From NCBI GenBank assembly GCA_905250055.1, contig CAJNOF010000018.1:1159575-1191354 (forward strand): a stretch of 31,780 nt of DNA. Reading direction: 5' to 3'. This DNA comes from Rotaria sp. (lineage: Eukaryota). Positions 3,045 to 31,780 of the stretch are shown here, piece after piece. Under the pieces are notes generated by a model that ran no database searches, was not told where the DNA came from, and saw only the letters and a program-made list of their open reading frames with translations. The position numbers were made by a program, and so were the translations under genes. How positions within the stretch are numbered: position 1 is the first letter of the stretch; each line of letters begins with the position of its first letter.

Positions 3045-3622
3045 TATGGGATGTCCAGTAAGTCATTAGCCAAAGAAAAATTTGAATATCTCAATCGTGC
3101 TTTGATCAAATGAACTGATTCTTTCACCACTGATAGAGGACTATTCCTAGTTCATATGCATAAGAATAACATTGGCAGAAAATATTTCGAAGTATCACTT
3201 TTGAAATCAATAAAAAGATATTGTCCACTTACGGGTTTCGAAAAATGTTATTTACGCTTAGGACAACGTAAAGTTGTAAGACATCTTAGTGTATCTGAGA
3301 GGAATTTAACCAGGTATATTCCTTTATACTTTAAAAAAATTAGTCTACTTTGGCTGGAATCTGCTAAACTTATTTAAATTTATTCTTTGCGATAACTTTT
3401 AGAACACACAATAAATAGGATCTTTTTTGAGAATTCACATAAGATGATATTTCCTTATTGGAGTCAATAGCGATACTTCGGAACAGCTCTTGTCAACATT
3501 ATTCTAATGAATATGGACTAGAAACAGTCCTCTATCAGCGTTAAAAGAATCAGTTCATTTAGTCAAAGCACGGTTGAGATATTCAAATTTTTCTTTGGCT
3601 AATGATTACTGGACACTCTATA
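3045..3622. mobile_element. Non-autonomous element with terminal inverted repeats of about 110 bp and about 350 bp of internal sequence.
   Basis: 3045-3157 (TATGGGATGTCCAGTAAGTCATTAGCCAAAG...) is the reverse complement of 3510-3622 (...CTTTGGCTAATGATTACTGGACACTCTATA). Track ORF 3156-3377 lies inside and has no recognisable homology. Confidence 0.6.
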
Positions 3623-6295: not shown

Positions 6296-6756
6296 ATCTT
6301 CTATTATTTTATTTTAATCAATTTAATGTGATATTAATAATTTATTTAAATTTCAAATTTGTGACGTTTTCGCATCTCGATGAAAGAGTTCATCAGACAT
6401 TAAAATTAAGGCAAATGACATGTAAATAAATACAACGAGAATAACAAAAAATTTTCTTTTCTTTAATATGAGTCATACATTTGATAGTGATACGAAAAAG
6501 GACTCAATCTCTATCTACGTAGCTATTATTATTAGTCTTGTTTTCTATATCACTATCAAATGTATGACTAATATCAAAGAAAAGAACAAAAGAAAATTTT
6601 TTGTTATTCTTATTGTATTTATTTACATGTCATTTGTCTTAATTTTAATGTCTGATGAACTCTTTCATCGAGATACGAAAATGTCACAAATTTGAAATTT
6701 AAATAAATTATTAATATCAAATTAAATTGATTAAAATAAAATAAAATAAAAGAAGA
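6296..6756. repeat. Long near-perfect palindrome of about 460 bp, a foldback-type hairpin element.
   Basis: 6300-6455 is the reverse complement of 6585-6750, and the centre 6455-6585 is itself palindromic (AGTCATACATTTGATAGTGATA / TATCACTATCAAATGTATGACT). Track ORFs 6468-6695(+) and 6619-6816(-) are mirror-image artefacts of the palindrome. Confidence 0.75.
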
Positions 6757-8130
6757 GAATAAAATCATGTCAAATACAGTATATAATATCTCTTTGAGGA
6801 ACCATTTGAAATACAAATTATATATTTTTTATTAGTGATTTCGCCGATTGATACGATAAAGTCCATAATGATAAAGATATTGATGATTCTGTAGCAAATA
6901 TTTTTGATTCATTGAGGTATTATCTTATTCCATTGACCAATTATTAAACAATATTTGAAGTTATTGTCAAAAAATTTCATAGAACCTGAGTTTTCCTACA
7001 CGTTCCATCATCTTTGATTTTTTTGTTGGTTGTTTCTAGAGAGTTGTTTATGTTTGGTACATAAAGTTGTATATCTTCATATCAACTTTTATTTATTTTG
7101 CATCATTTATTGTAAAAAAATAATTCAAAAAGTCTAATGTTGATCGATCTTTTTTTTTTGCTTATTGTTCATTTTCCACTTTATAAGTAATGTTAATATT
7201 ATCTAAATGAAGCTGTAGAATTGGACAATTGAAATATTTCAATACCTTTTATAATTTTTTTTTTGAAACATATGTATCATCTATTTGAGTTACTCTTGAA
7301 TAAATTTCGATTTTTATTATTACTATTTAATTTAATGATTTTTAAATATAACAAAAAATCTAATTATTTTAATAGCGGATCATTTAAATAGTTTACTGAC
7401 CACTCAAAATGATAGCCAAAATTATTTGCGTACAAACATTTGTGATTTTCATAACTAGTCTATAAATTTTCATCAATATAATAGCAGAAAATAAGAAGAA
7501 AAAAGTCTTTTAATTTTTCTTTTTTAATGTAATATTTTCAATATTTTTAAATATAAATAAGCTAGTATATATAGTTTTGAATCCTTTTCTCTTGATTGTT
7601 CGGCATAACTTTTGTTGATATTGATCATTCTATATAATAATCGATGTTCAAATTTCGAGACATCATTTAATAAAATTCTTGAATCTGCTTTTAAGTTAAC
7701 TTTTCGTAAGTCTTCCAATAAAATAAATAATTTAATCTTACTGAAGAATTGAGAAAAGATTCTCATGACTCTATTTTTATATGGACATATATATATCTGT
7801 TATTATCTCACTTATCTACTGTTGATAAATAGCTCTTGTAGAAAAAAGTCAAAGGGCGTACTCTCACATGTATGAATACGATGTACAAAACCTATTTTAT
7901 CATAAATGACGTCGACGAAAGAAAACAAAAACTTACATGCGTAAGCATAGGCATGCTTTATATATAATGACATATTGTATAATTGGATTAATATTTTATT
8001 TCTTGATTAATCTACAATAATGACAAAAATACTATTCAAAAAATAAGATATAATGTCGCCTACGTTGTCTTCGTTCTTTTTTTTTTTGTTTTTTAGTTGA
8101 AGTCATGCTCTATCAACCACTTTAATACTG

Positions 8131-8206: not shown

Positions 8207-8671
8207 ATGAAAAAGTTAATCTTACATTTATTACTAGCTACTTTGACTATTGTTGCTCTATGTGCAGCTCAAGATGATCGAATTAAAATTGACAAACGAC
8301 GTGCTATACCCATAGCAACTCGAACAGTTCCTCCAATTGTCATTGGTTCAAAGACTTTCTGTTTAAGATTCCCATTTTCACCTAGATGCCATCCATGCAA
8401 ATATAGTCAACCAATCAGAAAGGCTATTTGTGGACAAGGACAAAGCAGATGTGAATTATTAGGTGGTACATGTAAATTTAATCAATATGAGAGAGCTTAT
8501 TGTTGTCCATATGAACATCGAGGTTGCTGTCCTTTGGTAATATATTTTCCTATTATTACTGGACGTCCTCCTATATGCCGTTCTCCACAATGTAGAACAG
8601 ATGCGCAATGCAAAAATTATGAAAAATGTTGTGGAATTTGCCGACAATGTGTCAATGCTACACTCGCATAA
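8207..8671 (+). CDS. Secreted cysteine-rich protein (154 aa, single exon) with an N-terminal signal peptide and a C-terminal WAP-like four-disulfide-core motif.
   Basis: Uninterrupted ORF. The N-terminus is hydrophobic (MKKLILHLLLATLTIVALCAA). There are 16 Cys, including CRTDAQCKNYEKCCGICRQC (the C..D..C....KCC..C..C WAP signature) and CC pairs (YCCPY, GCCPL). A paralog lies at 21843-22301(-). Confidence 0.75.
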   Translation: MKKLILHLLLATLTIVALCAAQDDRIKIDKRRAIPIATRTVPPIVIGSKTFCLRFPFSPRCHPCKYSQPIRKAICGQGQSRCELLGGTCKFNQYERAYCCPYEHRGCCPLVIYFPIITGRPPICRSPQCRTDAQCKNYEKCCGICRQCVNATLA

Positions 8672-15371: not shown

Positions 15372-15434
15372 CTAAACAAGAAAATCTCGATTGAAAAAAA
15401 AGAACAGCAAAATTTCAGCTAGATATCTCAATAC

Positions 15435-16796
15435 CTGACTAACGATTGTTATTAAGAAAAGTAAAGTATGTAGATTATAATCAAAATCTTTCGTATGATG
15501 TTCTAATTCTTCAATTACTACTGTTATTATTGTCTGCCATGATACAATCGGTATCGATAATGAATTACGTAACATGTCACTAAACATTGAAGCCCACTGA
15601 CGCAAATCTTCCATGTCAATAGATAATGAGTACTGTCGACGTAAATTAAGTTCATACAACCAAAACTCAATTCCTCGATAATGCTCTGCATTATCAGCTA
15701 GAGCGGCACCATGATATTGAAGAGAACGACGATATTTTGTATTAGTTGAACCAAGCAAACGTTCACGTACAAGTAATGCTTCAATGTACATATGATTATC
15801 ATTTAATTGAAGTTTTTTTAATTCATCGATTGTTTGACATTCTTGTCGATTATCAAATACTTCAACAGTTGATAACCGTAGAACTTTAGGAAGATTATGT
15901 TGAAATCGAAGTTCAAGTGCTCGATAGAAGTATTCAAACGATTGTTCAAGATTATAGCTTCCATGTTCACCACAGGCAAAAGCACTTCCAAGTAATTCAT
16001 GCGCTTCGATTTTTTCAAGCAATGAACATTGTGGAGAAATAGCATCGACAAGATCAATTCGTCTCTTTTCAGCTGCTAATAATAGTGGAGACATTTGATC
16101 ATGATTTGATCGAAAATTTCGAGCACCATGATTTAGTAAAAATTGAACTAATTCAAATGAACCACGATCTACAGCAAAGTAAAGTGGTGAACAACCATTA
16201 TCCATTGATTCATTTACATCACAACCTAATTCATCAACAAGATAAGTTACCATTTTTAAATCTTCATTGTAAACAGTTAATATAAGATTTGTTTCATTAT
16301 GTATTTTGGCAATATGTATATTAGCACCGTTCTTATTCAAATAACGAGCAATATTCATATTACCATTGGAACAAGCACAACGAAATGCTGTTGAATTTGT
16401 TTTAGTTGTATGATTAATTTTAGCTCCATGTTCGATAAGTAATTTCACAATATTAACATTGTCAATGGCAACTGCTGCCCATAAAACAGTTACATTTTCA
16501 TACATTAATAAACTTTCATCTCTTTCTTCGAGTTGTATATCATTTAGCACTTCGAGATCAACTCCAGAATAATTAAGCAATATTTGTACTATGTCTTCGA
16601 ACTCATTTAAACAAGCAATCATAAGTAAAGTACATTTTTGTTTGTTCGATTCATCATATGTTCGATTTAAATAGATCTCAGGATTGTTCATTGTCGACAA
16701 ATGATTTTGGAATGTTTTAACATCTCCTTGACGAACAGCAGATAATAGTAAGTTACTTACGTCCTCCTTGAAGTCATCGTTGTATTTCATCGTCAT
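15435..16796 (-). CDS. fem-1: fem-1 homolog, exon 1 (454 codons; ankyrin repeats). The full gene encodes about 626 aa.
   Basis: ATG at 16796. The translation matches FEM1B throughout, for example LWAAVAIDNVNIVKLLIEHGAKINHTTKTNSTAFRCACSNGNMNIARYL vs [49 protein letters not shown], and IEAHELLGSAFA vs IEALELLGASFA. Donor CAG|GTATTG at 15434. Intron 1 is 63 nt. Confidence 0.9.
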
Positions 16797-18738: not shown

Positions 18739-19725
18739 ATGGTAGACTTTCTACTAGTCAATATCGTTTGGCTTCTTCATTTTGTCATATGTTTCTACAT
18801 TATCCGTCCTATTCGTCACATTCTAATTCGAGCCATTTTGACTTGCGTACCATGTATATTACTGACTGATATTTGCACACGTAATCTTCCTCCACATCAT
18901 ATTTTTTCTGTCTTTACCATTGCAATATATTGGATGGTATCGATTCGTCTCTTTCATTTAGTCGTTCTTACACCTGACACGTTTCCAACATTTTCTTCCT
19001 TTACTGCAAAATGTCTATGGATTCTCTTACCAGTTATACCTTGTCAATCGAAAGAGAAGCAATGGCCTATCATCTTTTATTTGATTTTTGGTGTAGTAAA
19101 ATTTATACTTAATCGTTGGTTACATAGATGGTTACTGATATGTGAATCAAATGATAGTTATATGAGAGTATTTATTTATTTCTTATCAATATTAACATTT
19201 TCATATGTAGTCGATATTGAGACGGTTCTTGTGCGAATAATCACTCGAGATAAATATACACTTCAATCACTTAACAATTTTCCATTCTTCTCTCAATCAT
19301 TACGTGAATTTTGGGGTCGACGATACAATCGGATCATCAGTACAATTTTCAATGAATCAATTTTTCGGCCTCTCAGTTTATTTATACCTTCTCGATCAAT
19401 CGTATCTTTATTAATATTCATTATCAGTGGTCTTTTTCATGTACATATTGTCTTTATTGTTTTCAATGAGCCTTCATCGGCTTTGCCTACATTTGCCTGT
19501 TTCTTTCTGAATGGTATTGCTTGTTGCATAGAAGCACATCTTGCAATTAAGTTACCACCATTACTTGGATGGTTGGTAACACATAGTGTCCTTTTTGTAA
19601 CAGCACCAATGTGTCTTGGAACGTTTGCACGAGACAAATCTGTATTTTTTGGTCTAGATGGTCTTTCAACGTATGGTGATCAATGGATTTCAAAATTGCC
19701 TATGCCCAAGAGTTGTCCGAAATAA
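18739..19725 (+). CDS. Intronless multi-pass membrane protein (328 aa) with MBOAT_2 / wax-synthase-like acyltransferase motifs.
   Basis: Uninterrupted ORF with many hydrophobic segments. It contains SLREFWGRRYN (compare the wax-synthase / MBOAT_2 motif S..FWGRRWN) followed about 45 aa later by IISGLFHVH (compare the conserved vSGllHE histidine motif). Confidence 0.55.
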   Translation: MVDFLLVNIVWLLHFVICFYIIRPIRHILIRAILTCVPCILLTDICTRNLPPHHIFSVFTIAIYWMVSIRLFHLVVLTPDTFPTFSSFTAKCLWILLPVIPCQSKEKQWPIIFYLIFGVVKFILNRWLHRWLLICESNDSYMRVFIYFLSILTFSYVVDIETVLVRIITRDKYTLQSLNNFPFFSQSLREFWGRRYNRIISTIFNESIFRPLSLFIPSRSIVSLLIFIISGLFHVHIVFIVFNEPSSALPTFACFFLNGIACCIEAHLAIKLPPLLGWLVTHSVLFVTAPMCLGTFARDKSVFFGLDGLSTYGDQWISKLPMPKSCPK

Positions 19726-20996
19726 ACAACAACAAGAAAAATGTCAAAACTGTACTGATATGTTTTATGATGATCAGTATTGAATAAATAAAAGAAAAGC
19801 ATTTTTTTACAATTTTGTAGTGAACTAAAACTCGTAAACGAAGATTGTTAAAAGTCGACGTCAAAATGGACGTAATTGATTTTAATTGTATTCGCACGCT
19901 ATAGCTCGAATAATCATGCTTCACAGAGATGATAGCAAAGAATTTTTTTTGCCTATATGTAGTAACAAAATGAATAGGTGGTGTCAATAGGCAACAAATG
20001 GCCCTGAAGTATCAGAGTCTATTGAGCTCGATCAGTTCCTATTTCAATCCGACAACTCTGACTGATTAATCGAATAAAACATTCGAACCAACTGATCTGC
20101 AATAGATACACTCGGATTAATTCAGAAGCAATTGTGGTAAAAGACATTCATATAAAAATAATGTAACTTTGATGATCTACATTCATTACGGTGTCTTGAG
20201 ATCAGACAAACAAACTATTTTTGCACTACAATCGAGGCAATCAATCGTGCGCATGATTTTTTTTTCGGCAGTTTTTTTTACTGATTCGCTCGACTTTTAT
20301 TATGAGCCAATGTATCAAGAGGTAGCTCATAATTGATAAGAAGAACGAAAATAAAGCTTAATGTAGTACTCGGCAATATTGAAAATCTAATTACAAGTCA
20401 ACGTAGAATATTATTTATTTTCTTGATTCATTCTCAATCAATTTAATAAGGACTCTGGAGAGAGAACTAAACAATACAAAGACTATTAGGTACAACAATG
20501 TCATTCATGCAAGAATATTTTAGTCGGTTCTCTTATTCATCTTCTTCTCAAACATTTCTTGCCTGGTCATGGTATTCATTTCGGCTTGTATATAGTTCAG
20601 AAGAATGACGTTCAGATGATAGATAATTTACAATACAAAACAGTACAAAGACTCTATTCAGTATCAGCACAGTTTTTCCTTTGCATCTTCCATTAACACA
20701 TAATAAAAGTTGAAAAAAAAATAATAAATCACAAAAATAAAACTGTATTTCATATGCGTGTCTAATAATATTTCTATTAGAACATAACTGAGTTTTTTTT
20801 ATTACTCAATGTCCACTAAATTTTCCGGTTTTTTACATGCAATATATACAATATCCTGGCATGCTTGGTACTTGAACCAGCCAAATAAAAAAAGCTAAGA
20901 TATTAGATAAAAATACAGAAAAATTTTGATCATTTTTCAACAAAAACACCATTGATATAAAAGTATCATATATGAAATGTCATGATACATACGTAT

Positions 20997-21500
20997 CTAC
21001 CAATGACAAAAATACTATAAGTTGTATTTTTGATATAAAATATAGGATTTGTAAATGAAATAATGTTATGAAGATAGATATAAATAGCACATAAAAGTTG
21101 ACAACGAAAGGACAATATGTTTATATATTGTTTGTATTTTTCTCAATACATATCACATTCTCCAGTTAAGAATATTTTTTTGAAGTATGCAATTAATCAA
21201 ATTATAATCGTGATGTTTACACTATTGAGCTAATATGAAACATTATCAAATGGAAAATTAAAATAAAGAACTTGAAATCACATGTTAAACTAGAGAATAC
21301 GATCCGATGAAGTATACAATGTTCTATCAACACTTTGTATCTTCATCTTAAGCTTTTTACTACACTAGAAGAGTCTATTCTGGTACTATTCATATAAGTG
21401 ATTTCATTTATAAACTATAGTTTTAATATCAAAAATATAATTTGCAACACTCTTTTGTCCCTGGTAGTATAGTCAGACATTTTGTAATAAACTTGTTTTA
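20997..21500. repeat. Second copy of the downstream flank segment, A' and C' direct and B' inverted, adjacent to the inverted gene arm.
   Basis: See the 9143-9700 entry. The reverse complement of 21311-21349 (CAATGTTCTATCAACACTTTGTATCTTCATCTTAAGCTT) matches 9236-9275 (AAGCTTACAATGAAGATACAAAATGTTGATGGAACATTG). Confidence 0.6.
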
Positions 21501-21842
21501 CTACTAGGAACTATATCTCAGTGGAGAAGTACATTACAAATACACAGCAATATAATCTTAGTGATTTGAAATTTTGTCAAATTGAACAACTTTTTACAAC
21601 ATAACTTCCGAATATAATATACTTTATCTAACGGATGCAATATAAAGAAGTGTTCATTCTTTTTTTTTCTTTATACCACTCTTCATAATATTATAAAGGT
21701 CACAGAAAGAGGATACTTCTGTTTTGTGAAATGAAACACATAGTAAAAATAATTGAAGCAAGGCTATTAGTTATGCAAAAAACAAAAAAAAAGAATTTCA
21801 AAGTTTATTTGTAGGCAAAGTAAATATTAGTCTTTGTAATTA

Positions 21843-22301
21843 TTAATAGACGGCTGGAACACATTTTCGGCAAATTCCACAACATTTTTCATAAGGTTTG
21901 CATGATGCATCTGTTTGACATCGATGACAGAATGGACTAGGACGTGGAAAGATAATAGTTCGGTATTCTACTGTTGGACAACAACCTCGATGTTCCCTTG
22001 GACAACAATAAGCTATGCCGTATTGATTAAATTTACATGTACCACCTAATGCTTCACATCTTCTTTGTCCTTGTCCACAAGTAACACCTATAATTGGTGA
22101 GCCATATGTGCATGGATTACATTTGGTTGATGATGGAAATTGTAAACAGTACTTAATTGGATCAAAGATAATTGGAGGAACCGTTCGAATTGGTATTAGT
22201 ACAGTACGTGATTTGTCAATGTCAACAGAATCACCTGGAATTGCATGTAAGCCAACAATAGCCAAAGTTGTTAATAATAAGCGTAAGATTAACTTGTTCA
22301 T
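21843..22301 (-). CDS. Secreted cysteine-rich protein paralog (152 aa, single exon) with signal peptide and WAP-like four-disulfide-core motif.
   Basis: MNKLILRLLLTTLAIVGLHA signal peptide. The Cys framework is conserved with the 8207-8671 product (CGQGQRRCEALGGTCKFNQYGIAYCCPREHRGCCP...CQTDASCKPYEKCCGICRKC). I estimate about 65% amino-acid identity. Confidence 0.75.
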   Translation of the reverse strand: MNKLILRLLLTTLAIVGLHAIPGDSVDIDKSRTVLIPIRTVPPIIFDPIKYCLQFPSSTKCNPCTYGSPIIGVTCGQGQRRCEALGGTCKFNQYGIAYCCPREHRGCCPTVEYRTIIFPRPSPFCHRCQTDASCKPYEKCCGICRKCVPAVY

Positions 22302-22368
22302 GATCCTTTGATAATATCAAACTCGAATAATCTTATATAAAACATAATTTGTTTTGTAAATTAATGAG

Positions 22369-22377
22369 ATTTATATA
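22369..22377 (-). promoter_or_regulatory. Conserved TATA box (TATATAAAT on the minus strand) about 70 bp upstream of the copy-2 ATG.
   Basis: Minus-strand read GATATTATATAAATCTCATTAATTTAC. The position matches that of the copy-1 TATA. Confidence 0.4.
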
Positions 22378-24122
22378 ATATCATAGTGATTGACAGGGCA
22401 TGACTTCAATGCAAGAAAAAAAAAATTAAGACAATGTAGGCGATGTCATATCTTTTTTTTTGAATCATATTGATCTATTTTTGCCAGTATTGTAGATTAG
22501 CGTTGCAAAAAAATATTCATCTAGTAATAAAATATATCGTTGTATAAAACATGACTATACTTACGCATATAGGTTTTTGTTGTTTGTCTTTCGTTGACGT
22601 TATTTACGATTAAATGGATTTTGCGCATTGTAATTACACATGAATGAGTATGCTCGTTAGCTTTTTAGATGCATTATTTATCGATAGTAGATAAATGAGT
22701 TAATAATAGGTATATACGTTAATATAAAAATACTATCATGAGAATCTTTTCTCAAATATTCAGTAGGATTAAATTGTTCTTTTTATCTAAAGACTTATGA
22801 GAGGCTTAGTTGAAAATAGATTTAAGAAGTATATGAAATTATGCCTTGAAATTTGGTACATCGATTATAATATAAAATGATCATTATTAACAAAACAAAT
22901 GACGAAAAACGAAGAAAAGACAAAAAAAAAACAAGGACTCACAATTGCATATACTACTTTATTTATGTTTAGACATATTTTGAAATATTACATTAAAAAA
23001 TTATAAGACTTTTTTCTTCTTATTTTCTGCTATTATATTGCTAAAAATAAATACATCTGTTGTCAAAATCATAAATCCTTGTACGTAAACAACTTTGACT
23101 ATTATTTAAGTGGTCAGTAAAATATATAAATCATTAACCATTAATATAGTTAGCTTTGTTAATGTATTTGCAATCAGTAAATTAAACTAAATTAAAATTA
23201 AAATATATTAAGAAGTAACTCAAATAAATGATACATATATTGAAGAAAAAATAATAGAAGATATTGAAATATATCAATGATCTTATTCCTTTAGATTTGT
23301 AGCGTAGTATCATCAAAATGATGATAATATTGGTTTCCTTCCACAATAGTATGGGTTTGTATGTAACTGAAGAAAATACTCTACTCTCACGCGACAGAAA
23401 AAATTCATTTGCAGCAATTTTATCAGAATCACGAAAGCAATTCACTTACATATTGATATTATCTATTTTAGTAATTAGTAGATTGGCTATATGAAGAATA
23501 TATTTTGACAAATTAGAACTATCAAGTCAAACATCTCAAACTTCTCTTAGGAAAAGTCAGATTTATCTAATAAATCGAATATATCACTACGTAACTATAT
23601 CATGTGCTTGTCAGGAGAACTTTCATAATTGATGACACATATTCAATAGACATTGTCACATTGTGAAAAACCGCAAAGAATAATTTATGCCATACAATAT
23701 TCTAGACTTTCTTGAAGAGATATAATTATCTGTTTTTAATTGTGTTCTATTCAATGGATAATTTTGTCATAGTAAGAAGTCATTTTTAGCCAATCGTTCA
23801 ATACTGTTTATGTCGTTTGAGAATGACCTTGAACCATTTTATCAAGCATTGTTTGGTTTCAACGAGAACTACGACTGTTTTCATAATAATAAGGATATAA
23901 AATAATATCAATATGTATAATCATTTATTCATTCATGAATATCTTGAAAGAAATGTGTTTTGTTTTCAATGATTTCTATTTTGTTTATTAAATAAAACGA
24001 CGCAAACCAATCCACAATACGAAAGCAGCGATAGAAGGAAAGAAGATTATTTTGTTGCTTATAGCTTTTTTCAACACGAACAATATCGAAAGAAAAACAA
24101 GTAAAAATAAAGAAACAAATAT

Positions 24123-24490
24123 AGATCCAGAAAGATTGATGTATGTAAAATGTTCGTCAGGTTCTAACATGACTAATTCTGGTCCTAATATAATTCTTGA
24201 ACTTTTTGCTTTATAATCATATACTTGTACAGCTTGATTTTGTGGTACTCGATATGTAACCACTTTGGTTTTGTCTCGTTTAGTCGTTTGCAACGATGAT
24301 GATGATGATGATGTTATTGTTGTTTTGTTCTGTCTTTCACCTAAACGATCTCGTTGCAGAAATTCTTCTATGCTTACGGGTAGCTCTTTTTCCCAGAGTT
24401 CTTCATCTTGCGTTAACATATATGTATTACCAATGATCGCACGAACACGACCACTTCTCAAGTCACGAACATAGATACCTTCATTTTCAT
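24123..24490 (-). CDS. MVP: MVP exon 6. The 3' boundary is uncertain, and MVP homology stops after ...INLSGS.
   Basis: Acceptor TTTTCTAG|[40 protein letters not shown]...[45 protein letters not shown] matches [41 protein letters not shown]...[45 protein letters not shown]. It includes an in-frame (TCA)6 poly-Ser stretch at 24295-24315. Below about 24123 the frame stays open but reads as a hydrophobic, non-MVP tail down to the stop at 23988. Confidence 0.7.
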
Positions 24491-24541
24491 CTAGAAAAAT
24501 TTTTACTAGATAAACAAAATATGAGAGATCAATCAAACTAC

Positions 24542-24628
24542 CCAAAGGTATCGCTTTTCGTTTTTGTAATACTTCAACTTGTACTGGTGGTATATACTCT
24601 CGTGGTCCTCTGGCTACCCATTTGTCAC
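24542..24628 (-). CDS. MVP: MVP exon 5 (87 nt).
   Basis: Acceptor TTTTTTTAAG|[31 protein letters not shown] matches MVP [29 protein letters not shown]. Donor G|GTAGTT. Confidence 0.8.
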
Positions 24629-24752: not shown

Positions 24753-24938
24753 CCGGTACACGGATGACATTATCTATTTCGTCATTAAACGTTTCAATAC
24801 ATTTCACGACGACACCTTCATCGTTACTCAAAATACATACATCTTGAATTCCTTTCTCTAATTGTTCATTAGGTTGTAGAAAAAATGATTTATCACCAAC
24901 GACTAATTTCTTCTTGCCCAATTGATTTTTACCATCAG
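24753..24938 (-). CDS. MVP: MVP exon 4.
   Basis: Acceptor TTTTCAAG|CT. (S)[37 protein letters not shown]... matches MVP [37 protein letters not shown]. Donor G|GTAAGA. Confidence 0.85.
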
Positions 24939-24999: not shown

Positions 25000-25422
25000 A
25001 TGAAACTGGATTTAAGATAACACAATATTGTCTTGAATTCAGTATATTTATATTAACAATGTCTACAAGTTGTTCATAAACGTTCAAAATATGTGTTTCA
25101 GTTTGTTCTTTTGTGACGAGCCATTCGTCACCATTATTTCGTATTTGACCAAAATCATCCTTGAATGTTTTCAATGCACGTAAATGTAATGCTTTTTTAT
25201 CTGTTACAACATGAGCATTTTCGAGGCTTACAACCGTTTCATAAGCCAATGGTACATAAGCACCTAACTTTTTTACTAACCAGTTTTCACCCGCTACACG
25301 ATGTTGACCTGTACGATCGATAAATTCTTTTTTAGCACTCAATCTTATTGCTTGATTTGGACCGATCACAGTGGCAACAATATATTCTTCTACGGATACT
25401 TCTTTTCGTGGTGTATACGTGC
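25000..25422 (-). CDS. MVP: MVP exon 3.
   Basis: Acceptor TTTCATAG|[66 protein letters not shown]...[11 protein letters not shown] matches MVP [32 protein letters not shown]...HNYCVILDPV. Donor T|GTAAGA at 24999. Confidence 0.85.
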
Positions 25423-25518: not shown

Positions 25519-25640
25519 CCAGGTCCTTCGAATAACCATTCATCTCCAGTTTTTCGGTGTTCTCTATTATCATCAAAATCCAAAACAGCTTTTAATCTTA
25601 ATGCTGAATTAGCTGCAACATATTTTAAAAGTGTAGGAGC
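25519..25640 (-). CDS. MVP: MVP exon 2.
   Basis: Acceptor TTATTTTAG|GCT. Translation [41 protein letters not shown] (MVP: [34 protein letters not shown]). Donor G|GTAAGT. Confidence 0.85.
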
Positions 25641-25700: not shown

Positions 25701-26048
25701 CTGTTTTAAAACTTCACCAGGATACAATGGAAATGGTTCTTTATAATCGTTTTCCAGTCGAACATCTAGGCTACCATGCGACAATTTTGCCTGACCATTT
25801 TTGTCGAATTGTGCTTGATCATCTTCATTCTTAACGACTGGATTTTCAATAACACAATAATGTCTTGGTGGTAGAGTGATCATTTTATCGGGTCCAAAAA
25901 CTATTGTTTCATTGTCCTGTCTAAAAAATGTTTTTGGACCAATTTCCAATCGTGTCACACTTGTATTCTGGTCTAATACATGAATATAATAGTAAGGTGG
26001 AATACGATAGATAGGATCCATCTGAGTCGGTAAACTCTTCGAAGACAT
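25701..26048 (-). CDS. MVP: Major vault protein (MVP), exon 1.
   Basis: ATG at 26048. [71 protein letters not shown] matches human MVP [59 protein letters not shown]. The exon ends ...PLYPGEVLKQ with donor CAG|GTATTA. Confidence 0.9.
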
Positions 26049-27961
26049 GCTATTGTCGAGTTTTAATACTAGAATAGAACCGAAAAACAAAAACTACCAC
26101 ATATTACTTCATTGTATCGTACTCATTGTTACGCGAAAAATATGACTTTTTCTTCTAGTCATCTATGAAAACGCATTAAAATATACAAACATATATGTTT
26201 TGATTGATGAACAATTATCTATTATTAACACTTCATGATAAGGAAAAATGTTAATCGTAATATGTTATCACTAATATCTGTAGAGCATATTTCGAAAAAA
26301 GAGAGTAACCCTAAGTGAGTGACACATTCTGTGTACATCTCTGCAAGTTTATCAGTACCCACTCAATGCATACACTCATCGGACTCATGTAAATAACAAT
26401 AGTGGCCATACAGTGTCAAGAATCGCAGAAAAAGACAGTAAAACTGGTGTCAAATAGAGAAAAAAATATGTATTCTGAGTGTGGATTTGTGAGTGAGCAA
26501 TAATGCTGCTTTTATGTTAAAAGAAATTGACAAAAATGAGACTGCCCCAATCAACAAAGTAGGATCAGGGTTGCTTGACTGTATGAGTAACCGGTAAAAC
26601 AATCTCATAAGGTGAGCTTAACAACGACAGCAAAAAAACTAACAATTCTCTTTCACCAATGCTTACTATACGCAAAAAAAAAGTGAAAGCATAATGTGCT
26701 TTAATTTGTTTCATGGTCGTCTCTTTATAATTCTTACTGTAAATCATTTTCCAAATCTTGCGCACCATGCTCATTGGTGTTATGAAATAACAGAAAAGCA
26801 AAACAATCATTGACACATTTGCTTCAACCAATGAATCAAAGGAAAAAAAAGGTGGCGTGCAGTAAGCGTTGCAAAAATAGATCAAAGTAAGTATCCAAGT
26901 CGATGGATACGCCTATGATATCCGTAGAGACATTATACATAGTCTCATGGGTGTCGAATGTTCTACAACACGGATTTTGTTGTACTACGTAATTTAGTTC
27001 CAGCAATGATTAAATTTTTGAGAAAGAAAGCACTTTTATGGATTGATTAGGAATATCTAATATTATTTCTACGAATGTTGCAAGTTGTTTAATTCCTTAT
27101 TAGATAATGACTAGTGATAATAATATACACTGAGTGATCAAGATATTCATTCATCAATGCATAAGCTTATGCGATCACTAGGACACAATATTTGATTGCA
27201 TTTACAAATGTCTGTAGTAAAAATACAATCAATATAACATTATGATGAAATAAAAATCTATCAATTACTCAAGTATCGATCACCAATTCTGGATAGTCAT
27301 GATTTCGAACTATTCGACACCTTAACACTTTAGGGTATGCTTAAAACGTATCTACTCTCACACTGTCAAACGATTATCCGTCTCCCTCATTCCTTACAAG
27401 TTTAAACTATTGTCTCGGTCAAAATAATATATATATTTTAATTGTACCTTGATAACGTGAAGTTATTGGTGCAATAGCATTTTTATTGTTAGCATAAAAT
27501 ATTAAATATTTAATACAACTTTCGGTTTTTCTCTAGTGAAGAAACTAGTCTTAAACCTTCGAATTTAGTGAATCAAAAGTGAATCTAAAATAGCTGATAA
27601 ATGTATTCATCACCAGTGTATATAAGAATGGTAATGTCAAAACACAACTCAAAATCAGTTTATTAATTCAAATATTGAAATAAACATGACTGAATCGATT
27701 ATGATTTAAAAAAAAAGAGAAATAGAAACTATTGAAATGTGTTAACTATGAAATATAATCTTTTTAAATCAGATTTGGCAGTTTATAATTTTCGCATTGA
27801 ATAGTTAACCAGAAAATTTCATTTTCCAGTATGATTTTTATTTAATTGAAAAGAAAAAGAGAAGCAAAGCCATTGAATTCATATTTGTTCTAGATAGTTA
27901 TTTCTTCAATAGATAAAATTGTTTATTCAGATGATTTTGATGGTGCATTAGTATGAACCAA

Positions 27962-28359
27962 TTATTGGATCGTATGAAGTTTTTGTTTTTTCTCTTGTTT
28001 TTTCCGTCGAATTCTTTCTAATTCTTCACGTGTAGGATCAATACCAAAACAATATTTCAATATATCCATTATGACAACAAACATAGCAACACTTATCATA
28101 GCAACAATTCCAAGATAAGCAAATGATGTCGAAACAGCTTTATAAATAACAATTTTCGTAGAAACTCCTTCGCAATGACGACCATAATAACTATTACCAA
28201 GACATTCACATGTATAATTCAACAATAATGGTCGACAAACACCATTATGCTCACATGTAATATTATCACAAAAGTTTATCATTAATTCACAGTTAGTTCC
28301 TTGCCAACCATCATTGCATATACAATAAAATGTGGTATTTGATGTTTCATTACATGTAC
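27962..28359 (-). CDS. EGF-repeat single-pass transmembrane protein, terminal exon. It encodes the end of an EGF domain, one full EGF domain, the TM helix and a short basic cytoplasmic tail.
   Basis: Acceptor TTTTGTTTTAG|GTACATGT. (G)TCNETSNTTFYCICNDGWQGTNCEL..FCDNITCEHNGVCRPLLLNYTCECLGNSYYGRHCEG then a hydrophobic run IVIYKAVSTSFAYLGIVAMISVAMFVVIMDIL, then KYCFGIDPTREELERIRRKKQEKKQKLHTIQ*. Stop codon at 27959-27961. Confidence 0.75.
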
Positions 28360-28417
28360 CTAAAACAAAATAAGTCTTATGAATTTTTTTTAGATAGTTT
28401 AACAATAATCTATTTAC

Positions 28418-28657
28418 CATGATCCAAACAAGTATGTGATTTACAAGGTCGATAATCAAATTCACAATCAGTACTATTAAAACCAGATGGACATGCACAA
28501 CAATAACCAAGGATTTTACTCTGATCATTTACACATGATCCATTATTTTGACATGGTTTACTCATGGCACATAAACTATTAGAAATATCGCAATAGGTAC
28601 CAATCATTGTTAAATCGTTACAAGGAGTTGGCTTAAAGGCTTGTAATACTGGTTTAA
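28418..28657 (-). CDS. EGF-repeat transmembrane protein, internal exon (EGF domains).
   Basis: Acceptor CCCTTTAG|TT at 28658. (V)KPVLQAFKPTPCNDLTMIGTYCDISNSLCAMSKPCQNNGSCVNDQSKILGYCCACPSGFNSTDCEFDYRPCKSHTCLDHG with donor G|GTAAAT at 28417. The Cys spacing is the canonical EGF pattern (C-x4-C-x5-C-x8-C-x-C-x8-C). Confidence 0.7.
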
Positions 28658-31456: not shown

Positions 31457-31780
31457 CTTGTGAATGACTAGTCGATGAATTACTCGTTGTGTATTTGGAT
31501 GTTGTAGTTGTTGTACTAGAAATTGTTGTTATTTTAGTTGTAGTTGTCGAAGTTGTTGTTGATGCTGTTATTGTTGTTGCTGATGTTGATGTTGTTGTAA
31601 TTGATGCTGTTGTAGTTGATGTTGTTATTATTGTTGTAGTTGATGTTGTTGTGGCTGATGTTGTTGTAGTTGATGTTGTAGTTGTTGAGGTTTTTGTTGT
31701 TGATGTTGTTGTTAGTGGTGTTGTCGTTGTTGATGTTGTTGTTGTTGATATTGTTGTTAGTGTTGCTGTTGATGTTGTTG
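31457..31780 (-). CDS. Thr/Ser-rich mucin-like coding exon, truncated by the window end. It is possibly the extracellular N-terminal region of the EGF/TM gene.
   Basis: On the minus strand the ACA/ACT/TCA frame is open across the entire repeat (…TTSTATLTTISTTTSTTTTPLTTTSTTKTSTTTTSTTTTSATT…TTTSKYTTSNSSTSHSQ). The other two frames hit stops. It ends with a canonical donor CAAG|GTAAGT (1451-1456 on the + strand reads ACTTAC). Confidence 0.45.
31480..31780. repeat. Imperfect tandem repeat of GTTGTTGATGTTGTTGTAGTTGAT-like units (+ strand), equivalent to Thr codons ACA/ACT on the minus strand.
   Basis: Visible periodic GTTGTTGATG / GTAGTTGATG units to the window end. Confidence 0.8.

Follow-up and report, generated by a model that had tools for sequence, protein, structure and literature searches.

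A short major vault protein with a conserved hydrophobic tail in bdelloid rotifers

Gene structure of the short MVP

We analysed a 31,780-nucleotide stretch of DNA from the bdelloid rotifer Rotaria sp. (contig CAJNOF010000018.1 of assembly GCA_905250055.1, positions 1,159,575 to 1,191,354 of the forward strand; hereafter, the window), which is AT-rich (~30 per cent GC) and has short GT-AG introns. Its minus strand carries a gene for a shortened major vault protein (MVP), to which we refer as the short MVP gene. Six exons (26048–24123) splice in frame into 511 amino acids of MVP repeats, which cover R1 and continue to most of R9; each exon has an open frame, and all five introns are bounded by GT and AG (they begin with GTATTA, GTAAGT, GTAAGA, GTAAGA, and GTAGTT). 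Past 24123, the frame stays open for a further 44 codons and ends with a TAA at 23990–23988, and no consensus donor was seen by eye near 24123. The spliced product has 555 amino acids (511 of repeats and 44 of tail), and an exact-sequence database look-up of it returned no match. A preliminary description of the window had likewise reported six exons of MVP repeats up to about residue 510 of the human protein, which is roughly right (the match ends at rat residue 502), followed by a hydrophobic, non-MVP tail that runs without an obvious donor to a stop at 23988, as found here. The parts of the gene are as follows.

25701–26048, minus strand: exon 1, with the ATG at 26048–26046; residues 1–116, repeats R1–R2 (splice reconstruction and tblastn to full-length MVPs)
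25520–25640, minus strand: exon 2, with boundaries AG/GCTCC … CCTG/GTAAGT (tblastn)
25000–25422, minus strand: exon 3, R3–R5 region, 78–82 per cent identical to full-length bdelloid MVPs
24753–24938, minus strand: exon 4 (splice reconstruction and tblastn)
24542–24628, minus strand: exon 5, followed by a 51-nt intron (24541–24491)
24123–24490, minus strand: portion of the last exon with MVP homology, covering R8 and roughly the first 3/4 of R9, with Vault_4 and Vault_3 matches
23991–24122, minus strand: C-terminal tail of 44 codons (hydrophobic helix 1, basic loop KKAISNK, hydrophobic helix 2, RRFI)
23984–23990, minus strand: stop TAA (23990–23988) and overlapping AATAAA (23989–23984), read from the sequence
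22302–23983, no strand assigned: intergenic DNA that separates the short MVP gene from its downstream neighbour, with no MVP remnant by tblastn, colinear with the Silwood2 locus

The N-terminus of the product (MSSK…PIYRIPPYYY) is kept in public models P0003, P0005, and P0010. At the other end of the gene, the TAA-TAAA arrangement is found also in orthologous loci L001, L007, and L010 (the last from Rotaria sp. Silwood2), and an AATAAA that overlaps the stop or lies within a few nucleotides of it is kept in most orthologous loci; judging from its sequence and position, this motif is likely the polyadenylation signal of the gene.

Intron 5 (24491–24541; 51 nt) is in frame and free of stops, as it also is in R. 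sordida and in a second short MVP copy of Silwood1 (copy B), and several public models, including P0131 and P0128, translate it. Splicing of this intron is supported by homology to all other MVPs at the exon 5/6 junction, and an isoform that retains it is possible. A (GAT)n run at window positions 24279–24324 corresponds to a stretch of six serines in the linker between R8 and R9; the linker varies in length among orthologues, with indels of 4–12 residues, and the tail is indel-free.

Domains present and absent

Vault repeats form the wall of the vault barrel, whereas cohesion among the 39 chains of a half-vault depends on the shoulder and, above all, on the coiled coil of the cap-helix. In the rat vault that Tanaka and colleagues described in 2009, the shoulder reportedly spans residues ~520–646, the cap-helix ~647–802, and the cap-ring ~803–845.

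Pfam matches in the 555-residue product are confined to Vault, Vault_2, Vault_4, and Vault_3 (203, 120, 64, and 90 bits, respectively, all far over the gathering cut-offs), with Vault_3 (repeat R9) covered at positions 1–46 of 62 only. The same scan found no MVP_shoulder (PF11978) match in this product and placed PF11978 at 547–665 of the full-length paralogue P0012. Residues 11–510 align to residues 5–502 of the 861 residues of rat MVP (E ~1e-180; PDB chains, 4HL8/4V60 numbering). The protein thus has the tandem vault repeats that define the family, and it lacks the shoulder, the cap-helix, and the cap-ring of a shell-forming MVP. Compared with the canonical rat and human proteins (PDB 4V60, 4HL8, and 7PKR), it shares R1–R8 and most of R9, is without the last ~17 residues of R9 and everything from the shoulder to the cap-ring, and carries a 44-residue double hydrophobic tail that is seen in no described MVP.

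The C-terminal half of MVP is also absent from the surrounding DNA. Three full-length MVPs used as tblastn queries (word size 2, E up to 10) gave no match at E <1 for MVP residues beyond ~532 across the whole 31.8-kb window, and the longest minus-strand open reading frame (ORF) in 22302–23987 is an 87-residue low-complexity frame. Both results bear out the preliminary description, in which the C-terminal half was said to be missing and 22300–24120 to hold no long minus-strand ORF. We also considered fission of the gene, which would have left a separate C-terminal MVP gene elsewhere, and rejected it on a weak negative: no bdelloid C-terminal-only gene was found among the 120 matches listed for the shoulder/cap half, a list from which the known full-length MVPs are absent too.

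Short MVPs in other bdelloids

The closest protein match (99 per cent identical) is from Rotaria sp. Silwood1, and the next-closest relatives are all short MVPs of 526–552 amino acids without a shoulder domain. Such proteins occur in R. sordida, R. socialis, Rotaria sp. Silwood2, Adineta vaga, A. steineri, and A. ricciae, and at a second Silwood1 locus, so that Silwood1 has two diverged copies (the window copy and copy B). The same species have ordinary MVPs of 884–895 amino acids, which are ~70 per cent identical to the short MVP. Over the repeats, full-length bdelloid MVPs (P0012 from the same species, 894 amino acids; P0007 from Didymodactylos carnosus, 864 amino acids) are 70–75 per cent identical to the short MVP and, unlike it, keep VPKKPNQ…, the shoulder (PF11978), and the cap.

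The reading frame runs through the breakpoint into a two-segment tail in R. socialis, Silwood1 copy B, Silwood2, A. ricciae, A. steineri, a Logan contig, and a European Nucleotide Archive (ENA) contig, and R. magnacalcarata also has the tail (model P0137). At least eight further bdelloid loci share the truncation point and have a homologous tail. The layout of the tail begins with …(L/S)(S/T)G(S) and continues with a hydrophobic segment of ~17 residues, a basic loop (KK/RR/QK…NK), a second hydrophobic segment of ~16 residues, and RRF or RRY with one to three further residues before the stop. The orthologous loci are 68–84 per cent identical and lie on large species-specific scaffolds, and the last exon is open in seven of eight orthologues, the exception being the A. 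vaga assembly, which has a 1-nt frameshift at the junction. When 1.84 billion representative proteins were scanned with the last exon, tail-bearing metagenome fragments were retrieved, of which P0270, P0271, P0276, and P0290 are clear and P0287 and P0403 doubtful.

In a neighbour-joining tree (505 columns, 200 bootstraps), the short MVP genes form one clade with 100 per cent bootstrap support, and the Rotaria and Adineta subclades within it have 100 per cent support each. The sister of the short clade consists of the full-length Didymodactylos MVPs, and the full-length MVPs of Rotaria and Adineta are placed separately. Both the truncation and the tail are ancestral to Rotaria and Adineta. We propose that, before the split of these two genera, a duplicate of a full-length MVP gene would have lost the last ~17 residues of R9, the shoulder, the cap-helix, and the cap-ring, and that the truncated duplicate would have gained a C-terminal tail of 44–48 residues, composed of two short hydrophobic helices, a basic loop, and an RRF end. 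On the evidence presented here and below, we put the probability that the gene is a bona fide, conserved, membrane-tailed MVP paralogue specific to this lineage, rather than the product of rearrangement damage, at roughly 0.8. The alternative raised in the preliminary description that the gene encodes a vault-repeat-only protein was essentially right, with the addition of the conserved tail.

Full-text literature searches retrieved no description of a truncated or membrane-tailed rotifer MVP, and the database entries for short MVPs are unnamed products or carry only the name 'Major vault protein'. One public model of the window gene (P0131; CAF3592482.1) already ends in the tail. Many other public models at the locus are wrong, owing to fusions, invented introns, and retained introns. 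Five of them (P0001, P0128, P0002, P0006, and P0032) fuse a cysteine-rich gene to the short MVP, and in others the tail is hidden by predicted introns, either inside it (P0009) or after FTY (P0004 and P0011); the alternative ends of the annotated models are unrelated to one another. The gene structure itself recurs in 12 cluster members drawn from several Silwood1 assemblies (contigs of up to 1.87 Mb) and in another seven named species; in the chromosome-level assembly of A. vaga it lies on a 20-Mb chromosome, with unrelated genes coming next within 1–2 kb.

Constraint on the tail and its origin

In the last-exon alignment of nine lineages, no indel falls within the 44 codons of the tail. Among Rotaria pairs, dN/dS (NG86) is 0.11–0.20 for the MVP part and 0.26–0.53 for the tail; between A. 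ricciae and A. vaga, the tail has a dN/dS of 0.157. When 40,000 frames of 44 codons were simulated with the composition of intergenic DNA, 925 stayed open (~2 per cent), and none of these 925 had two uncharged runs of at least 15 residues. In two of three Rotaria comparisons (with L007 and L001), nucleotide homology ends within ~35 nt past the stop. As far as sequence comparison can tell, these results show that the tail is a translated, constrained, and compositionally conserved hydrophobic segment.

We examined two possible sources of the tail. The full-length genes at L004 and at Didymodactylos locus L006 have no intron after LSG(S/T), and their next intron lies ~40 codons on; the tail is therefore not a read-through of a present-day intron, and its interpretation as a retained intron was rejected. 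When five tails were aligned locally to the C-terminal halves of P0007 and P0012 (500 shuffles each), nine of the ten alignments were non-significant, the remaining one being that of the ENA tail with residues 517–551 of P0007 (P = 0.004). Similarity of the tail to the lost MVP sequence is, on these alignments, not convincing.

The tail as a putative membrane anchor

In nearly all lineages, the last 44–48 residues contain two uncharged runs, of 17–21 and 15–16 residues, with a mean Kyte–Doolittle hydropathy of 2.0–3.0. The hydrophobic segments lie within ~50 residues of the C-terminus, as expected of a tail anchor, and in every lineage a basic loop of 6–8 residues splits them, so that they do not form the single span of a classical tail anchor. 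The N-terminus has, by eye, no hydrophobic stretch and is homologous to cytosolic MVP. In an AlphaFold2 model of the orthologue P0003, which is 83 per cent identical to the window protein, repeats R3–R7 have a pLDDT >85, and the tail is predicted to form two helices (508–529 and 531–550). Like tail-anchored and C-terminal hairpin proteins, the short MVP has no apparent signal peptide, a large N-terminal domain of cytosolic type, a hydrophobic part in the last ~45 residues, and basic flanks; tail-anchored proteins have one hydrophobic segment, whereas the short MVP has two. From these sequence features, the tail probably anchors the protein in a membrane. Because the tail is at the extreme C-terminus and there is no apparent signal peptide, insertion would be post-translational, in the style of a tail anchor or a hairpin, and a rod of ~9 vault repeats would be displayed on the cytosolic face of a membrane.

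The gene could also be real and conserved and its tail serve another purpose, as an oligomerization element that replaces the cap-helix, as a lipid-droplet or amphipathic motif, or as a degron that makes the protein unstable until stress sets in. Segments of 15–21 residues are short for bilayer spans, a simple in-out-in topology is hard to reconcile with the basic loop between the helices, the tail evolves more quickly than the repeats do, and in the A. vaga assembly it is out of frame. All of this would fit a tail that is not an anchor, which we nevertheless consider unlikely, because two hydropathic, uncharged runs with basic flanks are found in all lineages and amount to a classical membrane-helix signature, and because composition and length are conserved in the tail rather than sequence, as is typical of transmembrane segments.

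Expression of the probable Adineta vaga orthologue

Five MVP genes of A. vaga were reported to be over-expressed (Moris et al. 2024, PMC10809525). FUN_013870-T1, an MVP with PF01505, PF17794, PF17795, and PF17796 and without a shoulder (PMC10809525, Table S3), has a mean count of 1501 and a DESeq2 log2 fold change of 3.94 (~15-fold; false discovery rate 4e-75) at 2.5 h after desiccation and X-rays (PMC10809525). The next gene, FUN_013871, encodes a sulfotransferase (PF00685) and is listed in the same over-expression table (PMC10809525, Table S3). At the A. vaga short MVP locus (L008), a Sulfotransfer_1 gene (6881–7750) adjoins the short MVP gene, in an order that matches FUN_013870 and FUN_013871. 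Given the domain content of FUN_013870 and this one shared neighbour, we take it to be the A. vaga short MVP, an identification that we regard as probable; the paper itself groups it with ordinary MVPs (PMC10809525). The presence of the sulfotransferase in the same desiccation and radiation table suggests a co-regulated pair with the short MVP. The best matches of the sulfotransferase beside the A. vaga gene are cyanobacterial.

Inverted duplication and alternative explanations

Downstream of the short MVP gene lies one arm of an old inverted duplication.

20789–23323, no strand assigned: right arm of the inverted duplication, with its partner at ~5773/7249–9871 (inverted pairs I1, I2, I4, I8, I9, I11–I13, and I15–I22)

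The arms show 73–87 per cent complementarity and are ~77 per cent identical. The outer end of the right arm is located ~600–700 bp downstream of the MVP stop and ~800 bp away from where MVP homology ends. The preliminary description had placed the end of homology beside the boundary of this arm; the duplication is real and its end is near, but the two points are ~800 bp apart and do not coincide. From 27542 to 20799, the window has a colinear counterpart in the Silwood2 locus (L010); the colinear stretch takes in the MVP gene, 0.6 kb past the stop codon, the arm boundary at ~23285, and the cysteine-rich gene, and the blastn blocks 23964–23840, 23751–23496, 23485–23418, 23370–23280, and 23104–21656 match L010 in order; both arms match L010 12835–15274 at ~76 per cent. 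In Adineta, the neighbours of the short MVP gene are ATG27 and the sulfotransferase, and in other Rotaria loci the upstream gene is zf-UBP. Since the truncation is common to loci with different neighbours, since Silwood2 is colinear across the boundary, and given the tree, the truncation is not linked to the duplication, and the nearness of the MVP end to the arm end is, on this comparative sequence evidence, a coincidence.

The preliminary description favoured truncation by the rearrangement, and under this explanation the local duplication cut MVP, the gene is a decaying pseudogene, and the tail is a chance read-through of AT-rich DNA. MVP homology indeed ends (at 24123) within ~800 bp of the arm end (~23323), read-through of AT-rich DNA naturally gives peptides rich in F, I, L, and K, and an MVP copy of an unrelated metagenomic eukaryote (P0044, at L014) is cut at almost the same residue and followed by read-through and tandem repeats. 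We nonetheless judge this explanation highly improbable. At least eight other loci with different neighbours share the breakpoint, and identical breakpoints with homologous tails occur in species and loci that lack this duplication; these loci are not contaminant copies, as their divergence and their own large scaffolds attest, and Silwood2 reads straight across ~23285. Nor does the gene look like a pseudogene, as the preliminary description had allowed: none of the six exons is disrupted, the MVP part has a dN/dS well below 1, most pairs give a dN/dS of <1 for the tail, and the tail has no indels. Random frames essentially never give the architecture of the tail, and the probable A. vaga orthologue is expressed and induced.

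The remaining proposal of the preliminary description, that 3' exons are displaced or misassembled, would make the missing shoulder and cap an assembly or annotation artefact, with the exons displaced, collapsed, or on another scaffold. The assemblies are drafts, and the public models at the locus are inconsistent with one another; still, the agreement of independent assemblies, namely the 12 Silwood1 cluster members, the seven other named species, and the 20-Mb A. vaga chromosome, the retention of the stop and AATAAA in most loci, and the lack of a bdelloid C-terminal-only MVP among the 120 matches listed (with full-length MVPs likewise missing from that list) make such an artefact scarcely credible. 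We find it very unlikely, too, that the short form is only one isoform, whose tail comes from alternative terminal read-through while a rarer splice gives another C-terminus. Annotators did set introns inside the tail or after FTY, as in the models named above, but no canonical donor is conserved at the junction and no alternative downstream coding exon is conserved, two of the three Rotaria comparisons show nucleotide conservation dropping off immediately past the stop, and the alternative ends that annotators chose have nothing in common.

Two observations concern the metagenomic eukaryote mentioned above. Loci L014 and L015 (JGI metagenome 3300071516, contig Ga0620986_00212, 24 per cent GC) belong to an AT-rich eukaryote with a tandem array of intron-less MVP genes. 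One of the copies, P0044, breaks off at …DEQFTLIS, which is five residues short of the bdelloid breakpoint, and reads on into a hydrophobic peptide and then tandem repeats; it looks like an independent recent truncation.

Several points weigh against our interpretation of the gene as a conserved, membrane-tailed paralogue. Support for the Rotaria gene and for translation of its tail comes from sequence analysis, and both membrane association and the inability to form vaults are inferred from what is known of rat and human MVP. With segments of 15–21 residues and a basic loop between them, the tail fits neither a simple two-pass topology nor the single span of a classical tail anchor; AlphaFold2 models it with a confidence of only ~60, and the whole model is mediocre (mean pLDDT 65.6). 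Against the most divergent ENA contig, dN/dS of the tail is near or >1, a value that comes from 44 codons with saturated dS. The expression link in A. vaga depends on Pfam content and one shared neighbour, not on sequence identity. Finally, the A. vaga chromosome assembly carries an extra nucleotide at the junction that shifts the tail into the +1 frame, and the annotated product ends in a different peptide of 30 residues. This frameshift could be an assembly error or could be real, in which case the tail might be dispensable in that species. The extra base lies at ~9795–9810 of L008 (CP075492.1, reversed), in AAT[G]ATATCC, and the rest of the A. vaga tail is intact and very similar to that of A. 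ricciae.

Other features of the window

The neighbouring genes and the conserved non-coding block upstream of the short MVP gene are as follows.

21843–22301, minus strand: downstream neighbour, a secreted-looking cysteine-rich protein of 152 amino acids (from ORFs; P0126 is a stand-alone 152-residue model)
26560–26930, minus strand: conserved non-coding block, 0.5–0.9 kb upstream of the MVP ATG, 82 per cent identical to Silwood2 and 69–77 per cent to three other Rotaria-type loci
15372–16796, minus strand: ankyrin-repeat protein, encoded in the spacer that separates the arms; Logan contig L012 has it too, downstream of the short MVP gene
18739–19725, plus strand: MBOAT_2-like ORF
27962–28528, minus strand: ORF with an EGF domain

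The upstream block is conserved about as well as coding sequence and contains the invariant motifs CACGCCACC, (G)ATTCATTGG (a reverse CCAAT), and GTTATTTCA. A conserved ORF was considered as its explanation and rejected, since a 106-residue ORF in the block is broken in orthologues, and an Rfam scan of the window, the block included, gave no match. Judged by its conservation and position, the block may serve the short MVP gene as a promoter, a regulatory element, or a stress-response element.

The cysteine-rich gene has a diverged inverted copy at 8207–8671 on the plus strand, so that each arm of the duplication carries one, and the two encode proteins of 152–154 amino acids. A WAP-like motif (C-x2-D-x2-C-x5-K-C-C) was recognized in this protein by eye, and it has no Pfam match. 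Foldback repeats with arms of 150–165 nt that are 82–95 per cent complementary lie at 6299–6749, 1053–1693, and 3063–3605. The first of these hairpins sits in ~1.4 kb that interrupt the left duplication arm, where insertion of a miniature inverted-repeat (MITE) or foldback element is possible. From 31468 to 31779, at the end of the window, there is a GTT/GAT-rich repeat with a periodicity of 9–15 nt, which on the minus strand would read as an Asn-, Thr-, and Ile-rich low-complexity sequence, if coding.

Possible function and implications

Without the cap-helix coiled coil and the shoulder, the short MVP should not close a half-shell alone, and by analogy with canonical MVP it is probably unable to build vault caps or 39-fold half-vaults. 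Its repeat surface might instead serve a vault-independent, stress-related role, or tether or modulate assemblies of full-length MVP. Precedent for the use of repeats outside the cage comes from an MVP3-5 construct purified from Escherichia coli, which stably binds the MINT domain of PARP4 outside the vault cage (Nat Commun 2025, PMC12280208) and shows that the repeat surface can work without a vault. Recombinant repeat fragments such as this one, PDB 3GF5 (R1–R7), and 1Y7X consist of repeats only, like the short MVP, but are laboratory constructs and have no hydrophobic tail.

Binding of PARP4-MINT by the short MVP was considered and set aside. In our reading of the alignment, the human MINT contacts Q164, R169, and D214 align with V, G, and S of the short MVP and with R, G, and S of full-length bdelloid MVP; the human contact residues are thus conserved in no bdelloid MVP, and PARP4 binding is not inferable from them. 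A link to the radiation-induced PARP4-like genes of A. vaga would be pure speculation.

More broadly, the short MVP might be a natural separation-of-function form of MVP that bdelloids have retained over a very long time, a membrane-anchored rod of repeats that is incapable of forming vaults and is induced after desiccation and radiation, and whose repeat body has a vault-independent stress role close to the membrane. We offer this idea tentatively and regard it as rather unlikely. If it were true, the roles to consider would include the docking of half-vaults or PARP4-like cargo at membranes and the protection or repair of membranes on rehydration, and the short MVP would provide a handle on the long-unsolved function of MVP.

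For practical work, the wrong models at these loci mean that proteomic and transcriptomic studies of stress in bdelloids may misassign the short MVP. The function of vaults is still unclear nearly four decades after their discovery, and studies of MVP take the cage to be its functional unit. In the bdelloids, animals known to survive desiccation and ionizing radiation, purifying selection has maintained an MVP that lacks the parts that close the cage and has a hydrophobic, putatively anchoring tail in their place, which suggests that the repeat array has a function of its own.

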